Source: Acidobacteriota bacterium (GTDB taxonomy: Bacteria > Acidobacteriota > Thermoanaerobaculia > Gp7-AA8). From it: a DNA stretch of 64,000 bases. A model generated the notes under the pieces. The model was not told where the DNA came from and ran no database searches. It worked only from the letters and a program-made list of their open reading frames with translations. The stretch's first letter is position 1. Each line of letters starts with the position of its first letter. Of this stretch, positions 9,117 through 61,548 are shown piece after piece. The position numbers and the translations under genes were made by a program. The DNA is taken from NCBI GenBank assembly GCA_025463165.1, contig JAOBAU010000337.1:1073-65072 (forward strand), read 5' to 3'.

Positions 9117-11387
9117 CTACGGCAACTCGAACGTGACGCTCTCGGCGCCGGGCGCGAGTGGCTCGCGCGGCGCGCCGGCGAACTGCGGCAACGCGAAGAA
9201 GTCGGTGCCGAGCCAGCGACTCAGGAGCTCGTCGGTCGTTGGCCCGAGGATGATTTCGATCGGGCCGGTTTGCGCGATGTCCGAGACGGCGAGCGGCCGC
9301 GCGTTGCGCACGACTGTTTGCATCCGGCGAAGAATCGCGTGCTGCGAAAACGCCGGCGCCGGAATGCGCAGGCCGCCGACGACGATGGCGATGTAGTGGT
9401 TGTCGGTCGAGTTGCCGCCGTGCAGCGCGACCTCGAAATTTCGCCGCTGCGCGTTTGGAAACTGCAGCGTCATCGTTGCGCCGCGCGCGACCGCGGGAGA
9501 GCGGAGAACCCACAGCGGATGCGATTGCGACACGACCGCGAGCGTCTCGTCCGCCTGATGCTCGCGCGCGTAAACGAACGTGCCGTCTGACGAAAGTTCG
9601 GCGTGCTCGGTCTCGACGCCCGAAGGTGAGAACCAGAGGATCGACGCGTTCTCGAACGCGATCGGCGAGACGATCAGCCCGCGTGATCCGCGGAGCGGCA
9701 TCATCTTCACATCGAGTTTTCGATGTTCCGACTTCGTCAGCGAGAACGGCTCGAGATCCTGCTTTTGATAGCCGGGCGCGCTGACGGTGATGCGCAGCTC
9801 GCGCTCGGGCAGCGAGCGAATCACGACCGACGATTCCTCCCCTTTTGCCGACACCGTGTGCGTCACGACCGGACGTCGCGGCAGCAGCTTCGACATGACG
9901 GAGTAGCGAACGGTCGCACCGGGGATTGCGAGTTGCGTGAACGTATCGGTGATGGTCAGCGTCAGCTCGTTGTCCGGAATCTCGATATCGAATCGCTGCG
10001 AGCGCGGCGCGTAACGATCGACGACCACGAACGCGCGCAGCGGATCGTCGCAGGCCGCGATGTTGATGACGTCGTCGGTCGCGAGCATGTGGTCGAGGGC
10101 CGCGCGATAGTTGCTCTTCTCGCGATGCGCGAAGCCGCGGCCGTTTCCCGCAAATCCAAGCGTCGCGTCTTTGCCGAGCGGCTCGCCGCCGAACGTGACG
10201 TCGCCATACACCTGGTCGTAACCGGCGACCAGCCGCAGGTTCTGAATCTGGAACGGCAGCGCGACGACGCCGCTCTCGATCGGCGGCAGGTTTCCGAACT
10301 TCAGCTCCGCGCGATACGTCGCCGGCGGCACACCATCGAGCGTCAAGGTTCCGTACAGCCGATCGGTGGCGAGAGTTTCGTGGCGAATGACCTGACACGA
10401 CGCTGAGTCAACCGTCCGTTCCGGAGGCTGCGGCGAGGGACAGCTGAGCAGCGAGAGCTCGAACTGCGGAGGTTTCGCGTTCGCGCTGTCGCAGTCAGGA
10501 ATGTCGCGACTGAGCTCGATGATGCCGTCATTCGCGCTCCAGTTGACGATGACGGTTGCGGCACCGCGCGCGACGAGCGGCTGCTCGTTGATCGTCACCG
10601 GCTGCGCGGCGACCTTCACTTTTTCTGCGGATGGCAGCCAGCTCCGTCCGGAGAGCTCCAGCTGCTTTTCACCGGCGGTCGCGATTCCGCGCAGCAACAC
10701 GAACGCGCCGTGCATCGTTTCGGGTGGCGGCAACGGTTCCGATTCATCGCCGCCTTTCAACGCGACGTGCGGCGACGCGATGTCGTGTGCGGCCGCGATG
10801 GCTTTGCGATCACTCTCCGGTACGGAGATCCACGTCATCACCGCGCTGCCACCGCCGGCGCGCGCGTCGAGCGATCGTCGTCCGCCCGCTTCGATCGCCG
10901 GCGTCGTGAATACAGCGGCCGGCGTGGAGCGATCGATGACGATCAGCCAGAGCGGCTCGCCAGCTGGAACGGACAAACTCTGCGTGCCGGCAGCGATCGG
11001 AAACGCGCTGCCGCTGCGCGTCGCGTAGACGATTCCGCCGCGGCCCGCGGGCAGCAACGGCGCGAGCGTCGCGGCGGAAGCGAGCGGCAAGGCGATTGCC
11101 GCGGGAGCGGCAGCACCATCGATCAATGTCACCGGCGACAACACGCCGTCCGCTCTCGCGAAAACGTTCCAGAGTCCCGGCGGAAAGGTCAGCGAACCGG
11201 CGGCCACGCACGTCAGTTCCTGCGACGCCAGCCAGCGGCGAAACGGGTTCTCGCCATCGCGCGCCGCGAAGCGGCAAACCTCGCCGCCGGCGAACGGCGC
11301 GCCATCACGCGTCAGGTGAACGGACGTCGCCGCGGCAGCAACATCCGTACAGACGAAGAACAGCAGCAATGCAGCGATTCGTCTCAC
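9117..11387 (-). CDS. Hypothetical secreted protein, 756 aa
   Basis: GTG start, signal peptide MRRIAALLLFFVCTDVAAA. Long ORF with coherent codon usage and no recognisable motif. Confidence 0.6.
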   Translation of the reverse strand: MRRIAALLLFFVCTDVAAAATSVHLTRDGAPFAGGEVCRFAARDGENPFRRWLASQELTCVAAGSLTFPPGLWNVFARADGVLSPVTLIDGAAAPAAIALPLASAATLAPLLPAGRGGIVYATRSGSAFPIAAGTQSLSVPAGEPLWLIVIDRSTPAAVFTTPAIEAGGRRSLDARAGGGSAVMTWISVPESDRKAIAAAHDIASPHVALKGGDESEPLPPPETMHGAFVLLRGIATAGEKQLELSGRSWLPSAEKVKVAAQPVTINEQPLVARGAATVIVNWSANDGIIELSRDIPDCDSANAKPPQFELSLLSCPSPQPPERTVDSASCQVIRHETLATDRLYGTLTLDGVPPATYRAELKFGNLPPIESGVVALPFQIQNLRLVAGYDQVYGDVTFGGEPLGKDATLGFAGNGRGFAHREKSNYRAALDHMLATDDVINIAACDDPLRAFVVVDRYAPRSQRFDIEIPDNELTLTITDTFTQLAIPGATVRYSVMSKLLPRRPVVTHTVSAKGEESSVVIRSLPERELRITVSAPGYQKQDLEPFSLTKSEHRKLDVKMMPLRGSRGLIVSPIAFENASILWFSPSGVETEHAELSSDGTFVYAREHQADETLAVVSQSHPLWVLRSPAVARGATMTLQFPNAQRRNFEVALHGGNSTDNHYIAIVVGGLRIPAPAFSQHAILRRMQTVVRNARPLAVSDIAQTGPIEIILGPTTDELLSRWLGTDFFALPQFAGAPREPLAPGAESVTFELP

Positions 11388-21576: not shown

Positions 21577-21671
21577 GATGGCTTACATAAGAAAGCCCGA
21601 ATGGGGAACGGGAACGGCACAACAAAGGAAAGTGGATGCGCGCCTTGTGGCGGAATTGTGGCGGGCGCCAC

Positions 21672-21746
21672 GTCATCCTGAGCGCGGCGAAGGATCTCAG
21701 GATGGAGAGCGGCGCATTTGAGATCCTTCGCTGCGCTCAGGATGAC
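21672..21746. repeat. 27-bp inverted-repeat element (SAAKDL-type) with 21-nt loop
   Basis: Arms gtcatcctgagcgcggcgaaggatctc and gagatccttcgctgcgctcaggatgac have 26/27 complementarity. The element lies 5 nt after the mrp stop and about 95 nt upstream of the A2M start. Confidence 0.6.
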
Positions 21747-21750
21747 GGGA

Positions 21751-24780: not shown

Positions 24781-24877
24781 CATGCTGAGCGAAGCGAAGC
24801 ATCTCCGGTCCAGCAGCTGCGCAGTACGCCAACGTCACAGCTGCTGCACCATAGATCCTTCGCTTCGCTCAGGATAA
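24781..24877. repeat. Composite palindromic element, second copy of SAAKDL-type arms with nested inner hairpin
   Basis: Arms tgctgagcgaagcgaagcatc and gatccttcgcttcgctcagga. Inner palindrome cagcagctg…cagctgctg. Located between the lipoprotein stop and the SPOR gene start. Confidence 0.55.
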
Positions 24878-49464: not shown

Positions 49465-49466
49465 AG

Positions 49467-49541
49467 GTGCTGAGTGCAGAGTGCTAAGTGCTGAGTAGAG
49501 GCGAATTTCGCACTCAGCACTCTGCACTCAGCACTCAGCAC
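49467..49541. repeat. Heptamer-repeat hairpin (GCTGAGT units) between clpS and clpA
   Basis: Left arm gtgctgagtgcagagtgctaagtgctgagt, 14-nt loop, right arm cactcagcactctgcactcagcactcagcac. Confidence 0.6.
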
Positions 49542-49560
49542 CCGGTCAACACGTAAGCCA

Positions 49561-51798
49561 ATGATCGCCAAACAACTACAAAAAACCTTCGAATACGCGC
49601 TGAACGATGCGATGCGGCGGCGTAATGAATATGTGACGCTCGAGCATTTGCTGTTTGCGCTGCTGCATGACTCCGATGCGATCGAGGTTGTGCGGGCGTG
49701 TGGTGGTGACGTCGATCTGTTGCGCAAGCAGCTTGATGACTTCATGACCAAGCATTACGAGAGCGTGCCGGATGATGGCGAGGTTGAGCCGGTGCTGACG
49801 GCGATGCTGCAGCGCGTCATTCAGTACGCGCAGCTGCACGCGCAGAGCTCGGGGCGCAAAGAGGTCGATTCGGGGCAGATGCTGGCGGCGCTTTATCAGG
49901 CCGAGCGGTCGCAGGCGGTTTACCTGCTTCGCAGTGAAGGGGTGAACAAGCTCGACGTCCTCAACTACCTCGCGCACGGCATCGGAAAGGATTCGCCGTC
50001 GCCTGATTTCACGCCGGCGGGCGCCGACGAGGAGTCGGCTGCGCCGTCGAAAGATCCGCTGAAAACGTATGCGGTCGATCTCATCGAGCGCGCGAAGAAT
50101 GGCGAGATCGATCCGCTCATCGGACGCTCGGCCGAACTGGAACGGACCATCCAGATTCTCTGCCGGCGACGCAAGAACAATCCGCTCTTCGTCGGAGAGC
50201 CTGGTGTTGGCAAGACCGCCATCGCCGAAGGACTCGCGCTGAAGATTCAGCGCGGCGAAGTGCCCGCGGTGCTCAAAGACGCGCAGGTCTGGTCGCTCGA
50301 CATGGGCTCGCTGCTCGCCGGGACGAAGTACCGCGGCGAGTTCGAGCAGCGCCTCAAGTCGGTCATTCACGAACTGACCGAAACGAAGCGCGACACGATT
50401 CTCTTCATCGACGAGATTCATACGATCGTCGGAGCCGGCGCCGTCAGCGGCGGCACGATGGACGCGTCGAACATCATCAAACCGGCGCTGGCCAGCGGGA
50501 AGCTGCGCTGCATCGGCTCGACGACGTACGCGGAATACAAAGCATCGTTCGAACGCGATCGCGCACTCGCCCGCCGCTTCCAGAAAATCGAAGTCGGCGA
50601 GCCGTCGATCCCCGAGACGATCGAGATTCTGCGCGGCCTGAAGGGCTACTACGAAACGCACCATCAGGTGACGTTCACCGACAGCGCGCTCGAGCTCGCG
50701 GCCGAGCTGTCGGCGAAATACATCAACGATCGTCATCTCCCCGACAAAGCGATCGACGTGCTCGACGAAGCGGGCGCCCGCGCCCGAATGCTCCGCATCG
50801 CCGACTCGACGGAAGTCGACGTCATCGGCATCCACGAAGTCGAGCAGGTCGTCTCGAAGATGGCGAAGATTCCGCCACGCACCGTCGCCGTCAACGAGAA
50901 GGAACGGCTGCGCGAGCTCGACTCCGATCTGCGCAAGGTGATCTTCGGCCAGGATCACGCCATCAAACAGCTCGTCGCCGCCATCAAAATCTCCCGCTCC
51001 GGCCTCGGCAATCCCGGCCGTCCCGTCGGCTCGTTCCTCTTCTCCGGACCGACCGGCGTCGGCAAGACTGAGCTCGCCAAACAGCTCGCCGCCGCGCTCG
51101 GCGTCGAGTTCATCCGCTTCGACATGAGCGAGTACATGGAGCCGCACACCGTGTCGCGTCTCATCGGCGCGCCGCCGGGATACGTCGGCTTCGATCAGGG
51201 CGGATTGCTCACCGACGCCATCATCCGCACGCCGTATGCGGTGCTCGTGCTCGATGAGATCGAGAAAGCGCATCCGTCGCTCTTCTCGATCATGCTGCAG
51301 GTGATGGATCACGCCACTCTGACCGACAACAACGGCAAGAAAGCCGACTTCCGCAACGTCGTCGTGATCATGACCACGAACGTCGGCGCGCGCGAGCTGA
51401 GCGACGAGTCGATGGGCTTCCGCAACAACGCCGGCAGCGGCAAAGGACGCGGTGCGATCGAAAGAACATTCGCGCCGGAGTTCCGCAATCGTCTCGACGC
51501 GTGGATCGCCTTCGATCCGCTCGCCTTCTCGACAATCGAACAGGTCGTCGACAAGTTCATCGCAGAGCTGGCGACGCAGCTCGCCGTGAAAGACGTGACG
51601 ATCGAGCTCACGGAACCAGGCCGCGCGTGGCTCGCGAAGCATGGCTACGATCGCGCGTTCGGCGCGCGTCCGATGGCGCGACTCATTCACGCGAAGATCA
51701 AGGAGCCGCTCGTCGATGCGGTGCTGTTCGGCGCGCTGCAGAACGGCGGACACGTCGTCGTGAGTGCGGAGGGCGATGAGCTGAGGCTCGCGTATTGA
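49561..51798 (+). CDS. clpA: ATP-dependent Clp protease ATP-binding subunit ClpA
   Basis: N-domain, two AAA+ modules (GEPGVGKT and GPTGVGKT), 745 aa. No middle domain, so ClpA rather than ClpB. Confidence 0.9.
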   Translation: MIAKQLQKTFEYALNDAMRRRNEYVTLEHLLFALLHDSDAIEVVRACGGDVDLLRKQLDDFMTKHYESVPDDGEVEPVLTAMLQRVIQYAQLHAQSSGRKEVDSGQMLAALYQAERSQAVYLLRSEGVNKLDVLNYLAHGIGKDSPSPDFTPAGADEESAAPSKDPLKTYAVDLIERAKNGEIDPLIGRSAELERTIQILCRRRKNNPLFVGEPGVGKTAIAEGLALKIQRGEVPAVLKDAQVWSLDMGSLLAGTKYRGEFEQRLKSVIHELTETKRDTILFIDEIHTIVGAGAVSGGTMDASNIIKPALASGKLRCIGSTTYAEYKASFERDRALARRFQKIEVGEPSIPETIEILRGLKGYYETHHQVTFTDSALELAAELSAKYINDRHLPDKAIDVLDEAGARARMLRIADSTEVDVIGIHEVEQVVSKMAKIPPRTVAVNEKERLRELDSDLRKVIFGQDHAIKQLVAAIKISRSGLGNPGRPVGSFLFSGPTGVGKTELAKQLAAALGVEFIRFDMSEYMEPHTVSRLIGAPPGYVGFDQGGLLTDAIIRTPYAVLVLDEIEKAHPSLFSIMLQVMDHATLTDNNGKKADFRNVVVIMTTNVGARELSDESMGFRNNAGSGKGRGAIERTFAPEFRNRLDAWIAFDPLAFSTIEQVVDKFIAELATQLAVKDVTIELTEPGRAWLAKHGYDRAFGARPMARLIHAKIKEPLVDAVLFGALQNGGHVVVSAEGDELRLAY

Positions 51799-52472
51799 GC
51801 GAGGGGCGTTCCCGCTTCCCCTCTCCCCGCAAGTCGCGCAGCGACGTGATCGCCATCGGCGACGACCTTCGGGTCGAAACGCTGCGCGACGCCTATCGTC
51901 ACGGCATCTTTCCCTGGCCGCACGAAGACTATCCGCTGCCGTGGTTCTCACCGCGGAAACGAACGCTGCTCTTTTTCGATGAGCTGCACGCCGGCCGCTC
52001 CCTGCGCAAAGCCATTCGCCGCGCGCCGTACACCTTCACGATCGATCGCGACTTCGCGAGCGTCATTCGCGCGTGCGGTGAAGCGGAGCGACCGGAACAG
52101 GACGGGACGTGGATCGAGCCACGCATCATCGATGCGTACATTCGCCTGCACGAAGCGGGTGACGCGCACAGCATCGAAGCGTGGGATGGCGACGAGCTCG
52201 CCGGCGGTCTCTACGGCATCGACGCGGGCGGCGTCTTCACCGGCGAGAGCATGTTCCATCGCCGCAATGACGCGTCGAAGCTCGCACTGCTGTTTCTCGT
52301 CGATCACCTGAGCGCGCGCGGCGCGGCGTTCCTCGATTGTCAGGTGATGACGCCGCACGTCGGCGCGCTCGGCGCGCGCGAAGTACCGCGCGCGCGCTTC
52401 CTCGATCTGCTCGAGGAAGCGCAGAGCGCCGACATCACGCTGTTCCCGCCGTCAGCCGGCGACGAGCGATAG
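51795..52472 (+). CDS. aat: Leucyl/phenylalanyl-tRNA--protein transferase
   Basis: GIFPWP…PLPWFSPRKR…GGLYG…GESMF motifs. ATGA overlap with clpA. Confidence 0.85.
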   Translation: MSEGRSRFPSPRKSRSDVIAIGDDLRVETLRDAYRHGIFPWPHEDYPLPWFSPRKRTLLFFDELHAGRSLRKAIRRAPYTFTIDRDFASVIRACGEAERPEQDGTWIEPRIIDAYIRLHEAGDAHSIEAWDGDELAGGLYGIDAGGVFTGESMFHRRNDASKLALLFLVDHLSARGAAFLDCQVMTPHVGALGAREVPRARFLDLLEEAQSADITLFPPSAGDER

Positions 52473-53897
52473 CGTCTCGATCCCGCCGGCGCGGCAGCGA
52501 TCGCTCCACACCACGTCGGTCAGCTCTCCATTCGTCAGTTGCGGAACGATCGAGAACGGCTCGATCGACTGGCCGTCTTTCTCGAACACGACCGAGCGTC
52601 CGGGGCCGGTGTCGCACGACCAGCCATCCGCGTACAGACGAGACGCGAGCGCGCAGCCGAGGATGAGGGCGGCTTCGTCGTTGCGGCGGGCGTAGGGGAC
52701 TTCGCGCAGCGTCAGCTTGTCGATGAACGCCGGCAGCTCGCGGACGACCTGCGGCAGCGACGACGGCGTCACGCCGAGCAACGCTTTCGCATGTTCCGCG
52801 CTGCGCGACTGCCATTGCGGGAGATAGACCTTGATGGCCGCCTCTTCCCACGCCACCTGTTCGAGCGACGTGGCGCGATCGGGCGCGAGACTGCGCAACA
52901 GCGCCAGCTCGGCGGCGGAGAGGTCGCGCAGCAGTGATGACGCAAGCCGCGCATCGTCGGTGCTCACTTCTTCAGGTAGCGCCTTCAGCGCTTCGACGCG
53001 TTCGCGCAGCGGCGGATGGCTGTCGAAGACGTCGGACTTCCCTTCGCGCAGCTCGTGATCGACGGCATCGCGCACCGCATCGGCGAAGTGCGTGACGAAA
53101 CGCGAGAAGCCGTTTGCGATCGGCGGACGATAGCCGGAGCCGAGGAGCGGCACGACTTCCTGCGACCAGTAAGTGCCGTAGGCGACGGCGGCGCCGTGCA
53201 CCGCCATCAACGCGCCGGCGGCGGCGCGCGGTCCGGCGATCGTTGCGGCGAGCCGATCGGCAGCAAGTTCCTGCGCGCGCGAGATCGCCTGCGTCACGCG
53301 CAGAAAAAATCGGCCATACCAGAGAAACGGCTTGTGCAGGAAGCCCTGCGAGGAAAGGTTCTCGATCGTTCGTCCGATCGCTTCGCGCGTCCGATAGATG
53401 AGCGGCCCGAGCTTCGTGTCGCCGCCGTGATAGTGGCCGAACTCGTGCGCGACGATGGCGCGGAATTGCGAGATCGTCACCGCTTCCAGCAGCGGCAATC
53501 CGAGTCCCATGACGCGCCGGCTGCCGAAGCCCATCACGCCGCCGCGCTGCATCACCCACGCGTTGACGTCGCCGACGAGATAGACGTCGGCAGGCATCTC
53601 CTGTTCTGACTTCGTCGCGACCTCGCTCAGCACCGCGAAGAGCTCCGGATGCTCGCTCTCCGTCAGCCGCGGACCTGGCGCTTCGAACTTGTCGCGGCGC
53701 GGCACGATCGACCAGAGGATCGCCAGCGCCGCGACGACGCAGAGGATGGTCGGTCGCAGATAAAGCTCGTGCGCCCACATCACTTCCGCGTAGACGAAAA
53801 AGAAGAGCGCGCCGGCGAGAGCGAATGCCAGCGCGTAGAAGCCGAACATCAGCAGTACCGCAAGGACTGCGCGTCGCTTCAGCGAGTTGTCGGGCAT
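52452..53897 (-). CDS. M48-family zinc metallopeptidase (HtpX-like), membrane
   Basis: HEFGH motif and N-terminal TM helices. Confidence 0.8.
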   Translation of the reverse strand: MPDNSLKRRAVLAVLLMFGFYALAFALAGALFFFVYAEVMWAHELYLRPTILCVVAALAILWSIVPRRDKFEAPGPRLTESEHPELFAVLSEVATKSEQEMPADVYLVGDVNAWVMQRGGVMGFGSRRVMGLGLPLLEAVTISQFRAIVAHEFGHYHGGDTKLGPLIYRTREAIGRTIENLSSQGFLHKPFLWYGRFFLRVTQAISRAQELAADRLAATIAGPRAAAGALMAVHGAAVAYGTYWSQEVVPLLGSGYRPPIANGFSRFVTHFADAVRDAVDHELREGKSDVFDSHPPLRERVEALKALPEEVSTDDARLASSLLRDLSAAELALLRSLAPDRATSLEQVAWEEAAIKVYLPQWQSRSAEHAKALLGVTPSSLPQVVRELPAFIDKLTLREVPYARRNDEAALILGCALASRLYADGWSCDTGPGRSVVFEKDGQSIEPFSIVPQLTNGELTDVVWSDRCRAGGIETLSLVAG

Positions 53898-53953
53898 GGA
53901 CGATTATAGACGCCGTTCGAGAGCGTATATTCGCGGCACAAGGAGTCGAAATC

Positions 53954-55042
53954 ATGCCCACTCTCTCGCGTCGCGCCTTCGCGCAACTGGTCGGCGCCGG
54001 TGCCGCCGCTGCTGCGCTGCCAATGCCCTCACTGCTCGCCGCGCCGCCGCGCGAATCGGTCGTCCGACTGAGCGCCAACGAGAATCCGTACGGTCCCTCG
54101 CCCGCCGCACTCGCCGCGATTCGCGACGCGCTGCCGCTGGCGTGGCGCTATCCCGATGAAGCGGCGGAACAGCTCGCCGAAACGATCGCCCATCTCCACG
54201 GCGTTCCCGTAAATCACATCCTCCCAGGCGACGGTTCGAGCGAGATTCTCAAGCTCGCGGCGCTCGCATTCACGGGACGCGATCGCAAGCTGGCGATGGC
54301 GGTACCGGCGTTCGAAGCGATCGGACTTTACGCGCGTGCGGGCGGCGTCGAGGTCGCGACGGTTCCGCTCGATCGGCATTACGCGCACGATCTCGCCGCA
54401 TTAGCGGCGACGAACGCGTCGCTGATCTACATCTGCAATCCGAACAATCCGACCGGCTCGATCACGCCGTCGTCATCGATGCGTTCGTTCCTCGAGACGT
54501 TGCCGGCGACTTCCATCGCACTCGTCGACGAGGCGTATCACCACTACGCCGGCAGCAGCGATTACGAAAGCGTCGCGGCGCTGGTGAAGTCGCGGCCGAA
54601 CCTCATCGTGGCGCGGACGTTCTCGAAGATCTACGGCATGGCCGGCCTCCGCTGCGGCTACGCGATCGCGCAGCCGGATTTGATTCGCAGCATGGAAGCG
54701 CAGGCGCAGTGGGACTCGCTGAACATTCTCGCGCTGGCGGCCGCACGCGCATCGCTCGGCGACACGCAGCACGTCGCTGAAGGAAAACGGCGCAACCGCG
54801 AAACTCGCGACGCGCTCGTCGCGTCAATGAAGGACATGGGCCACGATGTGATTCCGTCGCAAACGAACTTCGTCATGATCGATACCGGCCGCGACGTGAA
54901 GCCGCTGATCGGCGCGCTGCGCGGCCGCGGCGTGCAGGTCGGGCGACTCTTTCCCGCGCTGCCGCATCACCTGCGCGTCACGATCGGCAAGCCGCCGCAG
55001 ATGGAGCGTTTCGTCGATGCGTTCCGCGCGGTGACCGCATGA
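53954..55042 (+). CDS. Tat-exported class I/II aminotransferase (histidinol-phosphate aminotransferase family)
   Basis: Twin-arginine signal MPTLSRRAFAQLVGAGAAAAALP. NENPYGPSP…YICNPNNPTG…TFSKIYGMAGLRCGY (PLP Lys). AGGAG RBS. Confidence 0.8.
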   Translation: MPTLSRRAFAQLVGAGAAAAALPMPSLLAAPPRESVVRLSANENPYGPSPAALAAIRDALPLAWRYPDEAAEQLAETIAHLHGVPVNHILPGDGSSEILKLAALAFTGRDRKLAMAVPAFEAIGLYARAGGVEVATVPLDRHYAHDLAALAATNASLIYICNPNNPTGSITPSSSMRSFLETLPATSIALVDEAYHHYAGSSDYESVAALVKSRPNLIVARTFSKIYGMAGLRCGYAIAQPDLIRSMEAQAQWDSLNILALAAARASLGDTQHVAEGKRRNRETRDALVASMKDMGHDVIPSQTNFVMIDTGRDVKPLIGALRGRGVQVGRLFPALPHHLRVTIGKPPQMERFVDAFRAVTA

Positions 55043-56262
55043 AGAAACTGCTGATCATCGCCGCGATCGTCGCCGTACTCGTCGCGCTGATCTGGTTCAG
55101 CGCGGCGCAATATCTCAACTCCACCGCCGTCACCGCTGCCCAAACGCGCTGGCCCAACAACCTCGGCACCGCCGACGACATCGCGCGCCACTTCCCCGCT
55201 CACGGAGATAACGAGACGGCAACGCAGGTCGTCGCGCTGGCAAAGCCGCTCGGCGTCCGCTTCGACGATCGCGGAACGGAGCCGGAGATTCAGACGATTC
55301 GCCCGGCGATGTCGCAACATCTGGCGCACGTCATCAGCACCGATGGTGATGCAGTCGATGCGCCGCCGGCGCCGCTTGCGCAATGGCTCACGCAACATGC
55401 GGCCGACATTCGTGCGCTGCAGCAGCAACTCGTCACGCACGACGCGCCGCAGTGGGCCGTCGATGCCGACACGCTGATCGAGGCGCCGATGCCGCGGCTC
55501 GTCTCGCAAATGGATCTCTTCCGCGTGCTCGCGCTCGACGCGCTCGAACAGCATCGCGCCGGCAACGACGCGCTGGCGTGGGAAGACCAGCACGCGTCGT
55601 GGAAGCTCGCGCAGGGACTCGCCGCGCGGCCGGAGCTGATCTCGCAACTCATCGGCATCGCCGGCGCGCGGCTCGCGAACGGCGTGGCAGCGAAACTCTC
55701 GGCACCGGCGCCGGCGTGGCGTCACGAACTGGCATCGTTCGACTTCGGCAACGCCGCCGTTGCGTCGCTGGCGTACGAAGCGACGCACAGCTGGCGTTAC
55801 GTTCGCCGCTATCCGGCCGGTGAGCCGGATGACGACAAGCTGCGGAATCGCGGACGAGAATTCATCGGCATCATCCTCGCGCCCTATCGCCGTCATCGCG
55901 CCGGCATCGCACTCGAACAACAGCGCCGACTGGCGATGGAGCTCGCATCGCTCAGCGCGTGCGATCCGCATCCGCGCACACCGCAGGGAACCCCGAATCT
56001 CGCCGAAGCATGGCGACGCATCGGCCGGTTCCGCGCGGAAGTCGAAGGAGTCGAGAAACTCCTCGCGCTGAAAGCGGCGCGGGCGCGAAGCGGAACGTGG
56101 CCGGAGTCGATGCCGTCGATCGCCGGCTCATCGTGCAGCGACGGCAGCTGGCAGTATCAGCGCGCCGCCGACGGCTCGATGTCACTCGCGTTCAGCAAAC
56201 CGATTCCGGTCGCGCACGCGCAGACGACGGTGGTGCCGCTGGTGTTCAGGTACGGGAAGTAA
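55039..56262 (+). CDS. Hypothetical secreted/anchored protein (407 aa)
   Basis: N-terminal MKKLLIIAAIVAVLVALIWF. ATGA overlap with the aminotransferase gene. Confidence 0.55.
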   Translation: MKKLLIIAAIVAVLVALIWFSAAQYLNSTAVTAAQTRWPNNLGTADDIARHFPAHGDNETATQVVALAKPLGVRFDDRGTEPEIQTIRPAMSQHLAHVISTDGDAVDAPPAPLAQWLTQHAADIRALQQQLVTHDAPQWAVDADTLIEAPMPRLVSQMDLFRVLALDALEQHRAGNDALAWEDQHASWKLAQGLAARPELISQLIGIAGARLANGVAAKLSAPAPAWRHELASFDFGNAAVASLAYEATHSWRYVRRYPAGEPDDDKLRNRGREFIGIILAPYRRHRAGIALEQQRRLAMELASLSACDPHPRTPQGTPNLAEAWRRIGRFRAEVEGVEKLLALKAARARSGTWPESMPSIAGSSCSDGSWQYQRAADGSMSLAFSKPIPVAHAQTTVVPLVFRYGK

Positions 56263-56345
56263 TGAGGCATGGGGTATGAGGTATGAGTAAAGGCAAAGGC
56301 ATCTACTCATGCCTCATGCCTCATGCCTCATTACTCATGCCTCAC
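56259..56345. repeat. Heptamer-repeat hairpin (CATGAGG units) spanning the stop codons of convergent genes
   Basis: gtaatgaggcatggggtatgaggtatgagtaaagg … ctactcatgcctcatgcctcatgcctcattactcatgcctcac. Confidence 0.55.
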
Positions 56346-56863
56346 AACACAATCGTGTACGCCAGCGTCGTCATGTCTTTCATCCGATCGAGATAGACGT
56401 GGCCGTCGGTGTGGTCGATCTCGTGCTGGAAGATGCGCGCGGTGAAGCCTTCGACTTCGACCGTGACCGCATCGCCATCGTGATCGATGCCGCGGACGCG
56501 GAGCTTCTTCCAGCGCGAGACGTCGCCGCCGAGGAACGGAACGCTGAGGCAGCCTTCCCAGTCATTGATTTTCTCGTCGCCGATCGGCTCGTACGTCGCG
56601 TTGAACAGCACGCCGGCGCCGACCGTTTTCACACCGCGACGTTTCGCGACGCGTTCCTGCACTTCATAAACATAGATGCGCATCGGCAGATGAATCTGCG
56701 GGCCGGCAAGGCCGACGCCTTCGTAGGCGTGCATCGTTTCGATCATGTCGTCGACGAGCGAGCGGAACTTCCCCGCTTTGATGTCCGCGACTTCGACGTC
56801 GCTCGCCTTCTGGCGCAAAACGGGATGGCCGAGCCGCGCCACTTTCAGAATCGACATCGTCAA
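56342..56863 (-). CDS. def: Peptide deformylase
   Basis: GVGLAGPQI, EGCLSVP and QHEIDH motifs. Confidence 0.9.
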   Translation of the reverse strand: MTMSILKVARLGHPVLRQKASDVEVADIKAGKFRSLVDDMIETMHAYEGVGLAGPQIHLPMRIYVYEVQERVAKRRGVKTVGAGVLFNATYEPIGDEKINDWEGCLSVPFLGGDVSRWKKLRVRGIDHDGDAVTVEVEGFTARIFQHEIDHTDGHVYLDRMKDMTTLAYTIVL

Positions 56864-58059
56864 ACCTCCGTAATGAGCGGCATACGCCGCATCGCCATCG
56901 CGATTGAGAACGCGGTAATCGTCAGCACCGCGCCGCCGTAAAACGCGCCGCGTGCCTGGGCGAGATCGTAAAGAAATCCGGTGGCGATCGGTCCGAGAAA
57001 TCGCGCCAGCGAGCCGATGCCGGATGCCAGTCCGAGCATCGAGCCCTGTTCATCGGCCGAGGTCACTTTCGACAGCAGCGCGGTCAATGACGGGTACGTC
57101 AGTCCCTGGCCGATGGCGATGAAGAACGCGACCGCGTAGAGACCTCGCACATCCCACAAACTCGGCACGGCGAGAAAGCCGATGGTGAACGACGCGGCGC
57201 CGATCGCGACGAGGGTCCGTTCGCCGAGCCATTTCGATAGTCGTCCGATCAGCCCGCCCTGGATGACAGCGACAATCACACCCATGAAGAGAAACCAGTG
57301 CGCCATGTCGCGCTGCCGGAATTGAAAGCGATCGCGCGCGTGCAGCGTGACGCTCGTCTCCATGCCGGAGACGGCGAAGAGCGTGAGGAAAAGTCCGGCG
57401 ATGATCGCGCCGAGGATGGCGCGGGAGAGCATCGCATTCCAGACGCGCTTGTCGAATTGCGGCGGAACCTTGCTCCGTACCGTTGCATTCCGCGGACGCG
57501 ATTCGGCGAGGACGAAGAAGGCGACCGCGAGAGCGATGAACGAGAGCGACGCGGCGACGATGCCGGGCAGCAGGTTGCCGTGCATGCCGTGATGCGAGCC
57601 GTACTCGCCGAGGAAACCGCTGAGCGGCGGACCGAGAATGAACCCCATGCCGAACGCGGCGCCGATCGCTCCCATCCCCTTCGCGCGATTCTCGGGCGTG
57701 GTGATGTCGGCGATGTACGCCTGCGCGGTGCCGATGTTCGCGCCGCCCGCGCCGGCGATGACGCGCGAGATGAAGAGCAGCAACAAACTGCGCGCGAATC
57801 CGAAGAGCAGGTAGCCGACGCAGCTCGCCGTGAGACTGATGAGAATCACCGGCCGCCGTCCGATCCGATCGGAGAGCCGCCCCCAAACGGGCGCAAAGAA
57901 AAACTGCATGATCGAATACACACCGACCACCGCTCCGACCATCACCCCGCTCGCGTGATACTCCCGCGCATAGAAGGAAAGGAACGGGATGACCATCCCG
58001 AACCCGATGAGGTCGATGAAGACGGTGAGGAAGAGAACGCCGAGGGAGGGGCGGTGCAC
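56860..58059 (-). CDS. MFS transporter
   Basis: 12 TM. GRLSDRIGRRPV (MFS motif A). GTG start. Confidence 0.85.
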   Translation of the reverse strand: MHRPSLGVLFLTVFIDLIGFGMVIPFLSFYAREYHASGVMVGAVVGVYSIMQFFFAPVWGRLSDRIGRRPVILISLTASCVGYLLFGFARSLLLLFISRVIAGAGGANIGTAQAYIADITTPENRAKGMGAIGAAFGMGFILGPPLSGFLGEYGSHHGMHGNLLPGIVAASLSFIALAVAFFVLAESRPRNATVRSKVPPQFDKRVWNAMLSRAILGAIIAGLFLTLFAVSGMETSVTLHARDRFQFRQRDMAHWFLFMGVIVAVIQGGLIGRLSKWLGERTLVAIGAASFTIGFLAVPSLWDVRGLYAVAFFIAIGQGLTYPSLTALLSKVTSADEQGSMLGLASGIGSLARFLGPIATGFLYDLAQARGAFYGGAVLTITAFSIAMAMRRMPLITEV

Positions 58060-58082
58060 GGCGGGAGAGTATAGAGGCAGTA

Positions 58083-58153
58083 CTGAGGACTGAGGACTGA
58101 GGACTGAGTGAGGCCGGCGCGAAGCGACTCAGTCCTCAGTCCTCAGTCCTCAG
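58083..58153. repeat. Heptamer-repeat hairpin (CTGAGGA x3) in divergent intergenic region
   Basis: ctgaggactgaggactgaggactgagt - 16 nt - gactcagtcctcagtcctcagtcctcag, with perfectly complementary arms. Confidence 0.6.
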
Positions 58154-58170
58154 CACTTACACTGTCGGGC

Positions 58171-58857
58171 GTGCGCCCCCGCCTCGCGTTGTTCGACATC
58201 GACGGCACGCTGATCACCGATGGCGGTGTCTCGCGCGAAGCGTATGGCGAAGCGCTGACGCTCGTGTATGGCTACGAAGGCGATCTCGGACGCTACGATT
58301 TTTCGGGACGTACCGATCCGCAGATCACGCACATGGTGCTCGGCGACGCGGGATTTCCTGCGGCGACGATCGACGAGCGGATGAGCGAGCTTTGGCGGCA
58401 TTACCTCGCCGGGCTGGCGCGCAATGCGTCGTCGGGACGCGTGCGGATGCTCGACGGGATTCGTCAGCTGCTCGAAGCGCTGGTGTCGATCGATGAAGTA
58501 ACCCTCGGGCTGGTCACCGGCAACATCGAGCCGGGCGCGCGGCTCAAGCTCGGCGGCGTCGGATTGAATTCGTACTTTCCGTTCGGCGCGTTCGGCAGCG
58601 ATTCGCAGAAGCGCGAGGAGTTGCCGCCGATCGCCGTCGCGCGCGCGTCGGCATCGAACGGTCATCGCTTCAATGGACGCGACGTCGTCATCATCGGCGA
58701 TTCGATTTACGACGTTCGCTGCGGCGTGCCGCATGGCGCGACGACGATCGCCATCGCGTCGGGACGAACGTCCGCAGAGCTGCTGCGCGCCGAGAATCCC
58801 GATCACTTCTTCATGAGCGCGGCCGACGACGGCGTGCTGGAAGCGATCGCAGGCTGA
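58171..58857 (+). CDS. HAD-family hydrolase
   Basis: LALFDIDGTL (motif I), GLVTGN, IGDSIYD. GTG start at 58171 preferred, since the 58108 ATG lies inside the hairpin repeat. Confidence 0.75.
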   Translation: MRPRLALFDIDGTLITDGGVSREAYGEALTLVYGYEGDLGRYDFSGRTDPQITHMVLGDAGFPAATIDERMSELWRHYLAGLARNASSGRVRMLDGIRQLLEALVSIDEVTLGLVTGNIEPGARLKLGGVGLNSYFPFGAFGSDSQKREELPPIAVARASASNGHRFNGRDVVIIGDSIYDVRCGVPHGATTIAIASGRTSAELLRAENPDHFFMSAADDGVLEAIAG

Positions 58858-58870
58858 CTACAATGCGTTC

Positions 58871-59410
58871 ATGACCGTCGCCGCATCGCGAATCCGGCTC
58901 ATCGTCTCCGACGTCGACGGCGTCTGGACCGACGGCCGCATCATCTACGCCGGCGACTCGCTCGAAGTGAAAGAGTTCAACGTCCGCGACGGCCTCGGCG
59001 CAAAGCTCGCGCAGAAAGCCGGCGTCATCGTCGCGCTGCTGACGAGCCGCAGCTCGCTGGCGCTCGAACGCCGCGCGCGCGAGCTCGGAATTGTCGAGCT
59101 TCATCAGGGCGCCGCGAACAAACTCGAAGAGCTCGAACGGATCGCCACCAAGCTCGTTCTCTCCCTCGATCAGGTCCTCTACCTCGGCGACGATCTCCCC
59201 GACCTCGCCCCGATACTGCACGCCGGCCTCTCCGCCGCTCCCGCCGACGCCGCGCCGGAAGTACACGCGGCCGCAACGTGGAAGCTCGACGCCGCCGGCG
59301 GACGAGGCGCGTTTCGCGAGGTGGTCGAGCGCCTCCTGCGCGAGCGCGGCGACTGGGACGCGATCGTCCGCGAGTTTCAGCGCGGCCGACCGCAGGGCGC
59401 GAGCATCTAG
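58871..59410 (+). CDS. kdsC: 3-deoxy-D-manno-octulosonate 8-phosphate phosphatase (KdsC, HAD)
   Basis: LIVSDVDGVWTDGRIIY…YLGDDLPD. Confidence 0.8.
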   Translation: MTVAASRIRLIVSDVDGVWTDGRIIYAGDSLEVKEFNVRDGLGAKLAQKAGVIVALLTSRSSLALERRARELGIVELHQGAANKLEELERIATKLVLSLDQVLYLGDDLPDLAPILHAGLSAAPADAAPEVHAAATWKLDAAGGRGAFREVVERLLRERGDWDAIVREFQRGRPQGASI

Positions 59411-60681
59411 TTCGCGACGCGCTCCACGCCCATCGGCCATTCGCCGCGAAGGAACTGCCGAATCGCGGCGAAGACGACCGCCGGCTCGTCGATCCACACC
59501 GCGTGCGCGGCGTGCGGCACCGTTAGCAGTCGCGCGTTCGGAAGCGCGCGCGCCCAGTCGCGGCCGCCGTCGTATGGCGCGTTGCGATCGAACGTGCCGT
59601 GAATCGTCAGCACCGGCATCGCGATCTTCGCGAGCTGCGTCGGTGAGAGATCGACGGCGACGATCGATGGCCAGAGCTGGTTGAAATGGCGATCGAGTCG
59701 GGCAGGCGCTTCGTTGGCGAGCTCGCAGGTGGAGCGAAGCCTCGACGCGTGCGACGGATCGCCGACCAACTGATGGCTGGTGACGTCCCACGCCGCGGCG
59801 CAGGTGTCGGTCGACGCCTTCGCGGCGACGCCGCTGTCGTCATTCGTATGCGCGGCGAACTTCAGCGATGCGTTGCGCGCCACCGGCGCGAGTTGCACGA
59901 CGCGCGCGACGTGCTCGGGATGTTCGGACGCGTACATCGCGACCATCTTGCCGAGGTAGGACCAGCCGACGGGAATGACGCGATCGACGTTGAAGTGGCG
60001 GCGGACGGCTTCGAAATCTTTCACGTCCTGCTGAATCGTCACCGAGTCGAGCTTGTCGAGTGACGCGGAGCGTCCGCGGTTGCGCGGATCGTACGAGATG
60101 ACGGTGGCGACGTCGGCGAGCGCGCGGAAATCGTCGAAGAGCATCGCGCCGAACGGGACGATGAGCGTCACCGGCGAGGAGCCGATTTTCTGAAAGTGTA
60201 ATTTCACGCCGTCGTCGGTGACGACGTCGCCTTCCGTGAACGGCTCGACGTTTTCGGCGAGACAGGCGGCCGGAGAGCCGGGACCATCGAAGAGAACTTT
60301 CCATGCGCCGTCCGGCTGTCGCAACCAGATCGACGAGTAGTTGCCGATGTGATGCGCGTTCGCGTCGAAGACCGGACCGGTGGAGAGTCCGATCGTGCCG
60401 GCGGCGTTCGTGACGACGCGCTCCGGCGTCCAGCTGAACGGCGCAACCGGTCCGGCGAAGAAGCGCGACCAGCGTTCGACGACTGCCGCTTTGCCGGCGA
60501 GCGTCTTCGCGGAAAGGAACGTGGCGTCGTCGAGCACGAAGGAGAAGAACTTCGCGGAATCGCGATCGGCGAACGCTTTCGCGAAGGCGATCTCGCCCGC
60601 GCGCACTTCATCAGCGTGCGATTGCGCGAATGCGGACGTGGCGGCGAGTAGCGCGAGGAGGACGGCGACGACTTTTTGCAT
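59407..60681 (-). CDS. Secreted alpha/beta hydrolase with N-terminal SnoaL/NTF2-like domain
   Basis: Signal peptide MQKVVAVLLALLAATSAFA. Nucleophile elbow VGWSYLG. Confidence 0.7.
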   Translation of the reverse strand: MQKVVAVLLALLAATSAFAQSHADEVRAGEIAFAKAFADRDSAKFFSFVLDDATFLSAKTLAGKAAVVERWSRFFAGPVAPFSWTPERVVTNAAGTIGLSTGPVFDANAHHIGNYSSIWLRQPDGAWKVLFDGPGSPAACLAENVEPFTEGDVVTDDGVKLHFQKIGSSPVTLIVPFGAMLFDDFRALADVATVISYDPRNRGRSASLDKLDSVTIQQDVKDFEAVRRHFNVDRVIPVGWSYLGKMVAMYASEHPEHVARVVQLAPVARNASLKFAAHTNDDSGVAAKASTDTCAAAWDVTSHQLVGDPSHASRLRSTCELANEAPARLDRHFNQLWPSIVAVDLSPTQLAKIAMPVLTIHGTFDRNAPYDGGRDWARALPNARLLTVPHAAHAVWIDEPAVVFAAIRQFLRGEWPMGVERVAN

Positions 60682-60758
60682 CGGGCCAGAGTAGCGGCTC
60701 GCGCCGGCGCCGCTGTTTGCGAACCGGCGCGAAGCGGTGACGAAACGCGAACGCGCCG

Positions 60759-61418
60759 TCAGCCGCCGGTTACACGCGCGTACGTCGCGTAATCGGCGAC
60801 GGCCGGATCGCCGCAATCGAATGGCGGCCGCGGGTGATATTGCACGATGAGCTGCGTCGCTTTCGCGATCCCTTCATCGCCGGTGATGAGCGCGATCAAT
60901 TCGAGCGTGCCATCGAGCGATGACGCGACGCCGCCGGTCGTGAAGCGATTGCGATCGCGGACGAATCGCGGATAGCCGTTCACGACCTTCACGTTTTTGT
61001 TCGCCTTCAGTTCATCGAGCGCCGCCCAATGCGTCGTCGCCTGGTAACCGTCGAGCAGTCCCGCCGCGCTGAGGATCACCGCTCCGGTGCAGACCGCCGC
61101 GACCCATGTCGCCTTCTTCGCCTGCTGTTTGATGAACGCGAGAAAGTCGGCGTCGCCGGTGGCCGCGGAGACGTCCTGCGCGCCGGGCACGAGCAGCACA
61201 TCGAGTTGTTTGTTTGCGTAATCGGCGAACGTCGCCATCGGCGTCAGCAGCAACTTCTGTCCGCTCACGACCGGCTCGCACGTCTTCGCGAGCAGCACGG
61301 TGTCGAGTGTGTTGCCGCTCCAGAACTGATTCACGCGGCTGAGCATGTCCCACGGACCGGCGACGTCGATCAGATCAACGTTCGGGAAAATCGGTACGCC
61401 CACGCGGATGGTCTTCAT
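60759..61418 (-). CDS. DJ-1/PfpI family protein
   Basis: AAVCTGAVILSAAGLLDG (Cys nucleophile elbow). ATG at 61418 (MKTIRVGVPIF). Confidence 0.8.
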   Translation of the reverse strand: MKTIRVGVPIFPNVDLIDVAGPWDMLSRVNQFWSGNTLDTVLLAKTCEPVVSGQKLLLTPMATFADYANKQLDVLLVPGAQDVSAATGDADFLAFIKQQAKKATWVAAVCTGAVILSAAGLLDGYQATTHWAALDELKANKNVKVVNGYPRFVRDRNRFTTGGVASSLDGTLELIALITGDEGIAKATQLIVQYHPRPPFDCGDPAVADYATYARVTGG

Positions 61419-61436
61419 GACACCTCTTTTATCGCT

Positions 61437-61548
61437 GGTCCTGAGTCCTGAGTCCTTAGTCCTGAGTGCTCGACCCACGGCGCGATGAGCATCGCGAACG
61501 CGAAGCGTCACTCAGGACTCAGGACCAAGGACTCAGGACTAAGGACTC
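61437..61548. repeat. Heptamer-repeat hairpin (TCCTGAG units) with nested inner palindrome
   Basis: ggtcctgagtcctgagtccttagtcctgagtg … cactcaggactcaggaccaaggactcaggactaaggactc. Inner cgcgatg-ag-catcgcg. Confidence 0.55.

Follow-up and report, generated by a model that had tools for sequence, protein, structure and literature searches.

A heptamer-array hairpin between divergent MFS and HAD genes of an Acidobacteriota bacterium: a probable copy of a dispersed, rapidly remodelled intergenic repeat family

The DNA analysed here (henceforth referred to as the window) is a stretch of 64,000 nucleotides (nt) of contig JAOBAU010000337.1 (assembly GCA_025463165.1) from an Acidobacteriota bacterium of the Thermoanaerobaculia, and contains at positions 58060-58170 the intergenic region between two divergently transcribed genes, in which lies a long inverted repeat built from heptamers. 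The gene on the minus strand (56860..58059) encodes an MFS transporter (Pfam MFS_1, E = 3.9e-60) for which orthologues were found, and the gene on the plus strand (58171..58857) encodes a HAD-family hydrolase (Pfam HAD, HAD_2 and Hydrolase_like). Both begin with GTG, at 58059 (-) and 58171 (+), as an initial annotation of the window had described, and both are probably leaderless; no regulator gene was found adjoining the pair. A search with the MFS protein gave 80 loci (21-kb) from metagenome-assembled genomes of Acidobacteriota, mostly Thermoanaerobaculia, and in the closest relative (henceforth L001) the MFS protein is 97% identical to that of the window. The HAD start at GTG 58171 is supported by L001, which has an ATG at the aligned position and no earlier start. 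A longer HAD open reading frame (ORF) from the GTG at 58108, inside the loop of the repeat, was rejected, as L001 has no equivalent start.

The inverted repeat lies where the initial annotation had placed it, with its core and the exact reverse complement of that core both present. The two arms (58079..58109 and 58127..58157) are 31 nt long each, 97% complementary and separated by 17 nt. The 5' arm is G-rich and C-poor and reads AGTA + (CTGAGGA)x3 + CTGAGT, with a period of 7 and 100% unit identity, and the 3' arm, its reverse complement, reads ACTCAG + (TCCTCAG)x3 + CACT. Tandem Repeats Finder (TRF) accordingly reports each arm as a tandem heptamer array with 100% matching (ACTGAGG x3.9 and CTCAGTC x3.7). 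The perfect core, CTGAGGACTGAGGACTGAGGACTGAGT, occupies 58083-58109 and its exact reverse complement 58127-58153; core and spacer together make up the 71 of 111 intergenic base pairs (bp) originally given, although the spacer itself (GAGGCCGGCGCGAAGCG, 58110..58126) is 17 nt long and not 16. When the outer AGTA/(C)ACT pairs are included, the hairpin covers 79 of the 111 bp. A chance origin of the repeat is excluded: the window has 11 occurrences of its 14-mer (allowing up to two mismatches), where 0.27 would be expected. Folded as RNA and compared with shuffled sequence, the element reaches -64.9 kcal/mol on the plus strand (z = -6.8) and -71.1 kcal/mol on the minus strand (z = -10.1), and folded as DNA -35.6 and -37.5 kcal/mol (z about -9.5). 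A scan of the element against Rfam 15 gave nothing at gathering score, generic miRNA-precursor hairpin models reaching about 40 bits against gathering scores of 78-104. Neither arm is followed by a T-run and a terminator scan returned no site at the element, which therefore does not have the make-up of an intrinsic terminator.

The hairpin between the MFS and HAD genes is one of four period-7 hairpin elements of like build that TRF detects in the window, and very stable stems are predicted for all four by RNA folding. Element E1 (49466..49542) is a (GTGCTGA)n / (GCACTCA)n hairpin between the same-direction genes clpS and clpA (-59.8 kcal/mol, z -7.8); E2 (56258..56335) is an (ATGAGGY)n / (CTCATGC)n hairpin between a hypothetical gene and def, which are convergent; and E4 (61438..61548; -76 kcal/mol) consists of (GTCCTGA)n / (ACTCAGG)n around a 40-nt loop and lies between the stop of a DAO oxidoreductase gene and the start of a DJ-1/PfpI gene, both on the minus strand. 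The four elements thus span tandem, convergent and divergent gene contexts. Their units have the form (C/A)TGAG plus two variable bases, their innermost unit is always ...TGAGT / ACTCA..., and the loop of the MFS/HAD element has the motifs (A/G)AGGC and GCGAAGCG in common with the loops of the sister elements. Since unit form, innermost unit and loop motifs are common to them, we regard the four as paralogous copies of one family. In an alignment of seven elements of the window and L001, a TGAGT-(A/G)AGGC...ACTCA frame is likewise common to all. All four elements of the window fall within 12 kb (49466-61548) and none within its first 49 kb, which may reflect local spread or chance.

The extent of this family was assessed in a census sample of 83 related sequences (1.19 Mb in total) with a finder of symmetric hairpins (stem of at least 16 nt, at least 85% paired, span of up to 260 nt), followed by scoring of the periodicity of the arms. 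Of the 247 hairpins recovered, 70 have a period of 7, 19 a period of 8 and 3 other periods; the remaining 155 are non-periodic, several of them weak intragenic chance matches. Period-7 hairpins occur at a density of about one per 16 kb in the sampled loci, with stems of 16-39 nt, loops of 6-170 nt and at least 47 different heptamer units, and were not found in the four most distant loci (L077-L080). Several unrelated units can occur within one genome, and like unit types recur at non-orthologous sites of different genomes. What does not vary in the same manner is their polarity: the 5' arm holds more G than C in 59 cases and less in 10 (p = 1.4e-9), a bias that was detected neither in period-8 nor in non-periodic hairpins and that, the element being palindromic, reads alike on both strands. 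Of 67 period-7 hairpins, 62 are intergenic, and their gene contexts (++ 17, -- 20, +- 10, -+ 15) are near the baseline of adjacent gene pairs, the divergent class being inflated because the MFS site was sampled in every locus. The 19 period-8 hairpins, which do not display the G-first polarity, have arms of tandem octamers, e.g. AGTCTCAA, GGCTCATA and GGCTCCTC, and were seen in L009, L016, L020, L041, L046, L048, L049, L055, L056, L060 and L065. Compound elements, in which entire hairpins or additional arrays built from one unit are repeated in tandem or nested, were also observed (L036 5937-6174, L019 9769-9961 and L070 9608-9879), and suggest local amplification of complete elements.

Comparison of close relatives revealed how these elements change. 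The window and L001 have 89-95% DNA identity across 16.7 kb, and three of the four elements differ in kind between them. At the MFS/HAD site of L001, CTGAGTG replaces CTGAGGA in both arms and the loop differs, with flanks that align; at the clpS/clpA site the unit is GTGCTGA in the window versus an ATGAGGC-type unit in L001, with the loop start GAGTAGAGGC kept; the DJ-1 site of L001 has a solo (ACTCAGC)x4 array only; and at the def site the element is conserved but for a clean indel of one 7-nt unit. Similarly, the unit changed between L028 and L081 with the two arms co-varying, and L048 and L055 carry different octamers at one and the same site. Sites filled in one relative and empty in another were found for the close pairs L042/L045, L026/L012 and L009/L011, and the full array of L042 corresponds in L045 to a single retained TGTCCG. 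At unlinked sites with unrelated flanks, three elements of L031 display the same order of variant units, which indicates that arms have been copied between loci. Overall, these results show that the family exists, is tied to a period of 7 (next to a smaller class of period 8), places the G-rich arm first and is variably present at orthologous sites, and that its arrays change in 7-nt steps, exchange unit types between close relatives and have arms copied from one locus to another.

According to the initial annotation, any promoter in the MFS/HAD region had to overlap or flank the repeat, and the predicted promoters flank it. In the reading of Zheng et al. (2011, PMC3160421), a TAnnnT located about 10-12 bp before a start codon marks a leaderless gene and is its -10 box. 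Conserved TAnnnT boxes lie directly outside both arms: the predicted -10 box of the MFS gene, TATACT (58073-58068, minus strand), is 8 nt upstream of GTG 58059, and that of the HAD gene, TACACT (58158-58163, plus strand), with which a TAGTAT of L001 is aligned, is 7 nt upstream of GTG 58171. For the MFS gene, a test of 71 loci gave 66 occurrences of TAnnnT lying 6-13 nt ahead of the start codon (in the variants TACACT, TAGACT, TATACT and TACAAT) and only 7 in the rest of the upstream 60 nt; for the HAD gene, the signal stands at the same distance from an in-frame start in 32 of the 41 loci with a divergent HAD neighbour. With or without a hairpin between the genes, the boxes are 6-13 nt from both starts, and the arrangement with boxes outside the arms held in most orthologous loci. 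Like leaderless genes that use a -10 box only (PMC3160421), the MFS and HAD genes thus have a TAnnnT signal and no Shine-Dalgarno sequence; this likeness concerns the setting of the element and not the element itself, and applies to starts predicted from sequence. We infer outward transcription of the two genes from either edge of the hairpin, which would fill about -15 to -95 of both predicted promoters. It would lie upstream of both transcription starts and, because the conserved -10 boxes are outside the arms and face outward, be expected in neither flanking mRNA. A scan for the sigma-70 consensus returned no promoter, the hexamers 16-18 nt upstream of the -10 boxes are poor matches to TTGACA, and no -35 match is conserved in orthologous gaps lacking a hairpin either. 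Both promoters therefore appear to depend on the -10 box alone, and this apparent independence from upstream sequence would account for the toleration of an insertion.

The distance between MFS and HAD starts is bimodal, with 24-50 nt in the 23 loci without a hairpin and 98-250 nt in the 9 with one; at 111 nt the window falls in the hairpin-bearing group. In the 23 short gaps the two -10 boxes stand back to back, either overlapping or directly adjoining (as in GGCGCGCAAGTATATTGTGCGGGCCGC of L081), and the two promoters should therefore compete for RNA polymerase. Such overlapping boxes in gaps of 24-50 bp take forms such as AGTGTACCCT or AGTCTACAAT (L005, L009, L020, L021, L081 and others). 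Judged by these orthologues, the gap of 24-50 bp appears to be the ancestral layout of the pair. Some long hairpin lies within 450 nt upstream of the MFS gene in 28 of 68 loci, 16 of these having a period of 7, and the hairpins between divergent MFS and HAD genes are built from at least ten units: CTGAGGA, CTGAGTG, CAGAAGG, CAGATGG, AGATGGC, TTGGATT, CGTTGTC, AGTGCCG, GTTGRCC and AGAGCGC. In L007 (about 9900-9990) the gap has two copies of the -10 region (GTGTACAC ... ATACACTAC), which enclose a solo (GCCGTTG)x4 array without inversion, so single arrays can take the same spot as hairpins. Exact-protein look-ups for strain-level variants of the locus returned no record, and a metagenome scan with a flank 30-mer recovered only two more distant relatives, both with empty sites.

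Viral contigs searched for exact three-unit arrays contained the same kind of element. In the 40.8-kb contig IMGVR_UViG_3300005578_000008, ORFs match portal, head maturation protease, major head, tape measure and tail families, which identifies it as a real tailed phage. Its period-7 arrays consist of the units CTGAGTG, CTGAGTC and CTGAGGA and their complements (L093, L098, L101, L104 and L109) and form at least 13 hairpins, nearly all between same-direction genes; nearly every intergenic gap of the phage has arrays. The arms of these phage hairpins often mismatch regularly at the variable positions (C.C, G.G and G.A): the CTSAG core, the 7-nt register and the inverted order are kept, whereas perfect pairing is not. 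Units of other lineages (e.g. CAGAAGG) form G-first hairpins in viral contigs of 40-69% GC, and the polarity in viral loci is 30 G-first to 4. The contigs of 40-47% GC with G-first hairpins of (CAGAAGG)n and (CAGAGGG)n are L148, L149, L155, L159 and L163, one of which is 119 kb long. As G-first hairpins occur in viral contigs of low GC, the architecture extends beyond the present clade and is not confined to Acidobacteria of high GC.

Among described repeats, the closest case is that of the inverted GGGAATC pairs of Xanthomonas campestris and X. axonopodis, in which 70-75 convergent inverted heptamer pairs occur per genome (Rehm et al. 2015, PMC4692102). The arrays concerned have about 2-5 units, are about 90% intergenic, lie near the upstream gene and are seldom found between divergent genes; close relatives differ in the number and sequence of units but keep the single or paired type, and no function has been assigned to the pairs (PMC4692102). 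The elements described here resemble these pairs in having a period of 7 with at least two tandem units (3.9 and 3.7 in the MFS/HAD copy), two close convergent arrays with the G-rich one first (17 nt apart in that copy; 59 of the 69 biased family members), an intergenic location and variability between close relatives such as the window and L001. They differ in that CTGAGGA, in contrast to the GGGNATC unit with its capacity for G-quadruplexes, has no GGG run, most units of the clade having no G-tracts; in that the clade uses at least 47 units, several per genome, and not a single one; and in that the present copy lies between divergent promoters and its units are also abundant in phage. Among long prokaryotic simple sequence repeats (SSRs), heptamers are over-represented and intergenic, with polymerase slippage in a 7-nt register proposed as their source (Mrazek et al. 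2007, as summarised in PMC4679880 and PMC4692102), features matched here by the dominance of period 7, the intergenic location and the 7-nt indels between relatives. Unlike SSRs described as direct arrays, such as the cyanobacterial STRR and TAACTGA repeats (169 sets of TAACTGA are direct and only one is inverted), two arrays are here paired in inverted order with a fixed polarity. Repetitive extragenic palindromes (REPs) are conserved palindromes of 20-40 nt with a GTAG or CGTC head, linked to REP-associated tyrosine transposases (RAYTs) (Bertels and Rainey 2011, PMC3116915; Di Nocera et al. 2013, PMC3733652). With the hairpins formed by REP doublets (REPINs), the present elements have in common an inverted doublet with a spacer for which a hairpin is predicted in single-stranded DNA or mRNA, extragenic dispersal, variability between strains and copies at unlinked loci. 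Unlike REPs, however, their arms start with AGTACTGAGG... and end with ...CCTCAGCACT, without a GTAG or CGTC tag, and their unit sequence is not conserved across copies; no RAYT was identified in the 64-kb window and the 21-kb loci, no search of whole genomes having been made. Full-text searches on heptamer and other small repeats gave no description of such elements in Acidobacteria, and what appears, on these searches, to be new is an abundant class of hairpins in uncultured soil Acidobacteria whose architecture and polarity are conserved while the sequence is free to vary, and which also occurs in a phage.

Taken together, we consider it probable, with moderate confidence, that the repeat at 58060-58170 is a copy of a dispersed, rapidly remodelled intergenic family of inverted heptamer-SSR hairpins, REPIN-like in build, and not a sequence-specific operator. 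In the lineage of the window the unit is CTGAG plus two variable bases. Slipped-strand mispairing in a 7-nt register may lengthen and shorten arrays of such units, and conversion or re-insertion from other members of the family may replace or homogenise copies. At the present site, the element would have landed between the formerly overlapping, back-to-back -10 boxes of two leaderless genes and pushed their promoters apart. Any local effect would then be generic and exerted at the level of DNA, in that the element would separate promoters otherwise competing for the same 30 bp and give both of them the same upstream DNA. By the twin-domain model, divergent transcription units should have negative supercoiling between them, and the hairpin might offer a cruciform-prone sink for the negative supercoils so generated. 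A sequence-independent effect of this kind, whether by promoter spacing or by cruciform extrusion of the 31-bp arms, is possible.

Several results weigh against this explanation in whole or in part. Away from the MFS site only 4 of 46 period-7 hairpins are divergent, against a baseline of 19% (p = 0.09), and yet the divergent MFS/HAD gap holds period-7 hairpins of at least ten different units in different lineages; by this comparison of loci, a hairpin or spacer could be favoured at that gap. The promoter positions are predicted from sequence conservation only. No clear target-site duplication was detected at four filled/empty pairs, and the duplicated-looking -10 boxes at the MFS/HAD site could equally be produced by selection. 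Lastly, the tailed phage carries about 50 arrays of window-type units in 38 kb, roughly nine times the density in the window. For so compact a genome this suggests either a function or an active mechanism of spread. Among 30 ORFs of the phage, no transposase was found.

Two alternatives that we consider unlikely, but to which we give some weight, would assign the family an activity of its own. The elements might punctuate transcripts at the RNA level, as factor-dependent terminators, REP-like 3'-end protectors or RNase III sites, in which case the MFS/HAD copy would be an incidental insertion or be transcribed from unseen promoters. The RNA stems are indeed extremely stable, 42 of the 46 period-7 hairpins outside the MFS site lie downstream of at least one gene, the phage hairpins follow genes such as that of the major head protein, where stabilising hairpins are common, and the heptamer repeats of Xanthomonas are mostly transcribed (PMC4692102). 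The hairpins also start close to the upstream stop codon (median distance 6 nt), as in Xanthomonas, although so short a distance is equally to be expected of any insertion into very short gaps. Counting against such a role are the stems without a T-run and the absence of any terminator-like call at the element, the regular non-pairing positions in phage arms, and the outward-facing -10 boxes outside the arms, given which neither flanking mRNA should hold the hairpin. Furthermore, mismatches in the sense-strand stem gave no signal of selection on RNA, G.U pairs being in no excess over A.C (24 versus 19 in the genomes and 9 versus 11 in the one-stranded phage). Alternatively, and with a similarly modest likelihood, the family may be an active mobile element of the REPIN type or akin to miniature transposable elements with inverted repeats (MITEs), whose copies would be moved by a dedicated, possibly phage-borne enzyme for which the MFS/HAD gap is a preferred target. 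This would be in keeping with the identical order of variant units at unlinked loci, the recurrence of unit types at non-orthologous sites of different genomes, the filled and empty sites, the replacement of unit types at fixed sites, the dense units of the tailed phage and the REPIN-like build of two inverted copies and a spacer (PMC3116915). At the pairs compared, however, neither target-site duplications nor conserved termini were seen, the GTAG or CGTC head of REPs is missing, no transposase was found among 30 phage ORFs, no known transposase substrate varies in sequence nearly as much as the unit, and the single TGTCCG of L045 opposite the full array of L042 fits growth or collapse in place.

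Two further explanations, in which the repeat would be a recognition site, are far less plausible. The initial annotation had proposed that a cruciform or hairpin at this position could act as an operator-like element or an insulator; here, a regulator would bind the CTGAGGA arrays or a cruciform and control the MFS and HAD genes together. The element does fill -15 to -95 of both predicted promoters and many lineages have a hairpin in the gap. By analogy with omega-type repressors, whose targets are 7-bp heptads, the symmetric arrays could bind a multimeric protein. However, comparison of the orthologous region, which the initial annotation had itself recommended, leaves no conserved sequence for a regulator to bind: 23 MFS/HAD gaps (24-50 bp) are without any hairpin, the units at the site vary between lineages, and even the 90%-identical L001 differs in unit and loop. 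With the same architecture found between convergent and tandem genes and inside the clpS-clpA pair, and with no adjoining regulator gene, a role as a locus-specific, sequence-specific device is very unlikely. We attach equally little credence to arrays of a DNA-level recognition motif, be it a Chi-like recombination signal or the site of a phage or host protein in a 7-bp register. Chi sites are G-rich, species-specific 5-8-mers, and a motif of this kind would explain the G-rich arm and polarity of the elements, the units common to phage and presumed host, and the CTSAG core that recurs at 7-nt spacing in both, even where the phage arms are unpaired. Against it, CTGAG is neither over-represented nor strand-skewed outside the arrays of the window (a 64-kb sample being small for skew), and one genome uses several unrelated units.

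Three simpler ideas were tried and gained no support. Selection on RNA as judged by wobble pairs, prompted by U.G pairs of E2 on the plus strand, had no support across the family. A role as an all-frame stop, prompted by the TGA in the 5' arm of all four elements of the window, was rejected, since a stop triplet is present in just 23 of the family's 70 units, against 17.8 expected from composition. As a Chi-like motif, CTGAG occurs outside the arrays 30 versus 24 times, below the median of same-letter permutations, in what is a small sample of 64 kb.

A more far-reaching proposal, which we regard as quite doubtful, is that heptamer-array hairpins are a self-propagating class defined by structure (7-nt register, inverted arms and an obligatory G-rich 5' arm), shared by phages and hosts across several phyla, and either spread by a dedicated mechanism working in the 7-nt register or read by a host factor as sequence-independent punctuation of transcription units. 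If this were true, the concerted swapping of units in both arms would be part of how the elements work and not a by-product. Returning to the reading of the repeat as a copy of a dispersed, remodelled family, regulatory models of the MFS/HAD pair should start from two overlapping leaderless promoters split by a repeat element. The class also offers a clean system in which to study the preference of bacterial simple repeats for a period of 7 and the joint change of the two arms of a palindrome, and in which to ask why the G-rich arm comes first, a polarity also reported in Xanthomonas. In practice, such repeats interrupt assemblies made from short reads and may be misread as regulatory sites or as genes of small RNAs.

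Finally, the window contains a second family of long hairpins, which are non-periodic and have stems of 29-35 bp, at 21671-21747 and 24785-24872 ((C)GTCATCCTGAGCG..GAAGGATCTC). These hairpins sit downstream of genes, related copies occur in L001, L025 and L070, and the string CTGAGCGAAGCG is common to them and to the loops of the heptamer elements.

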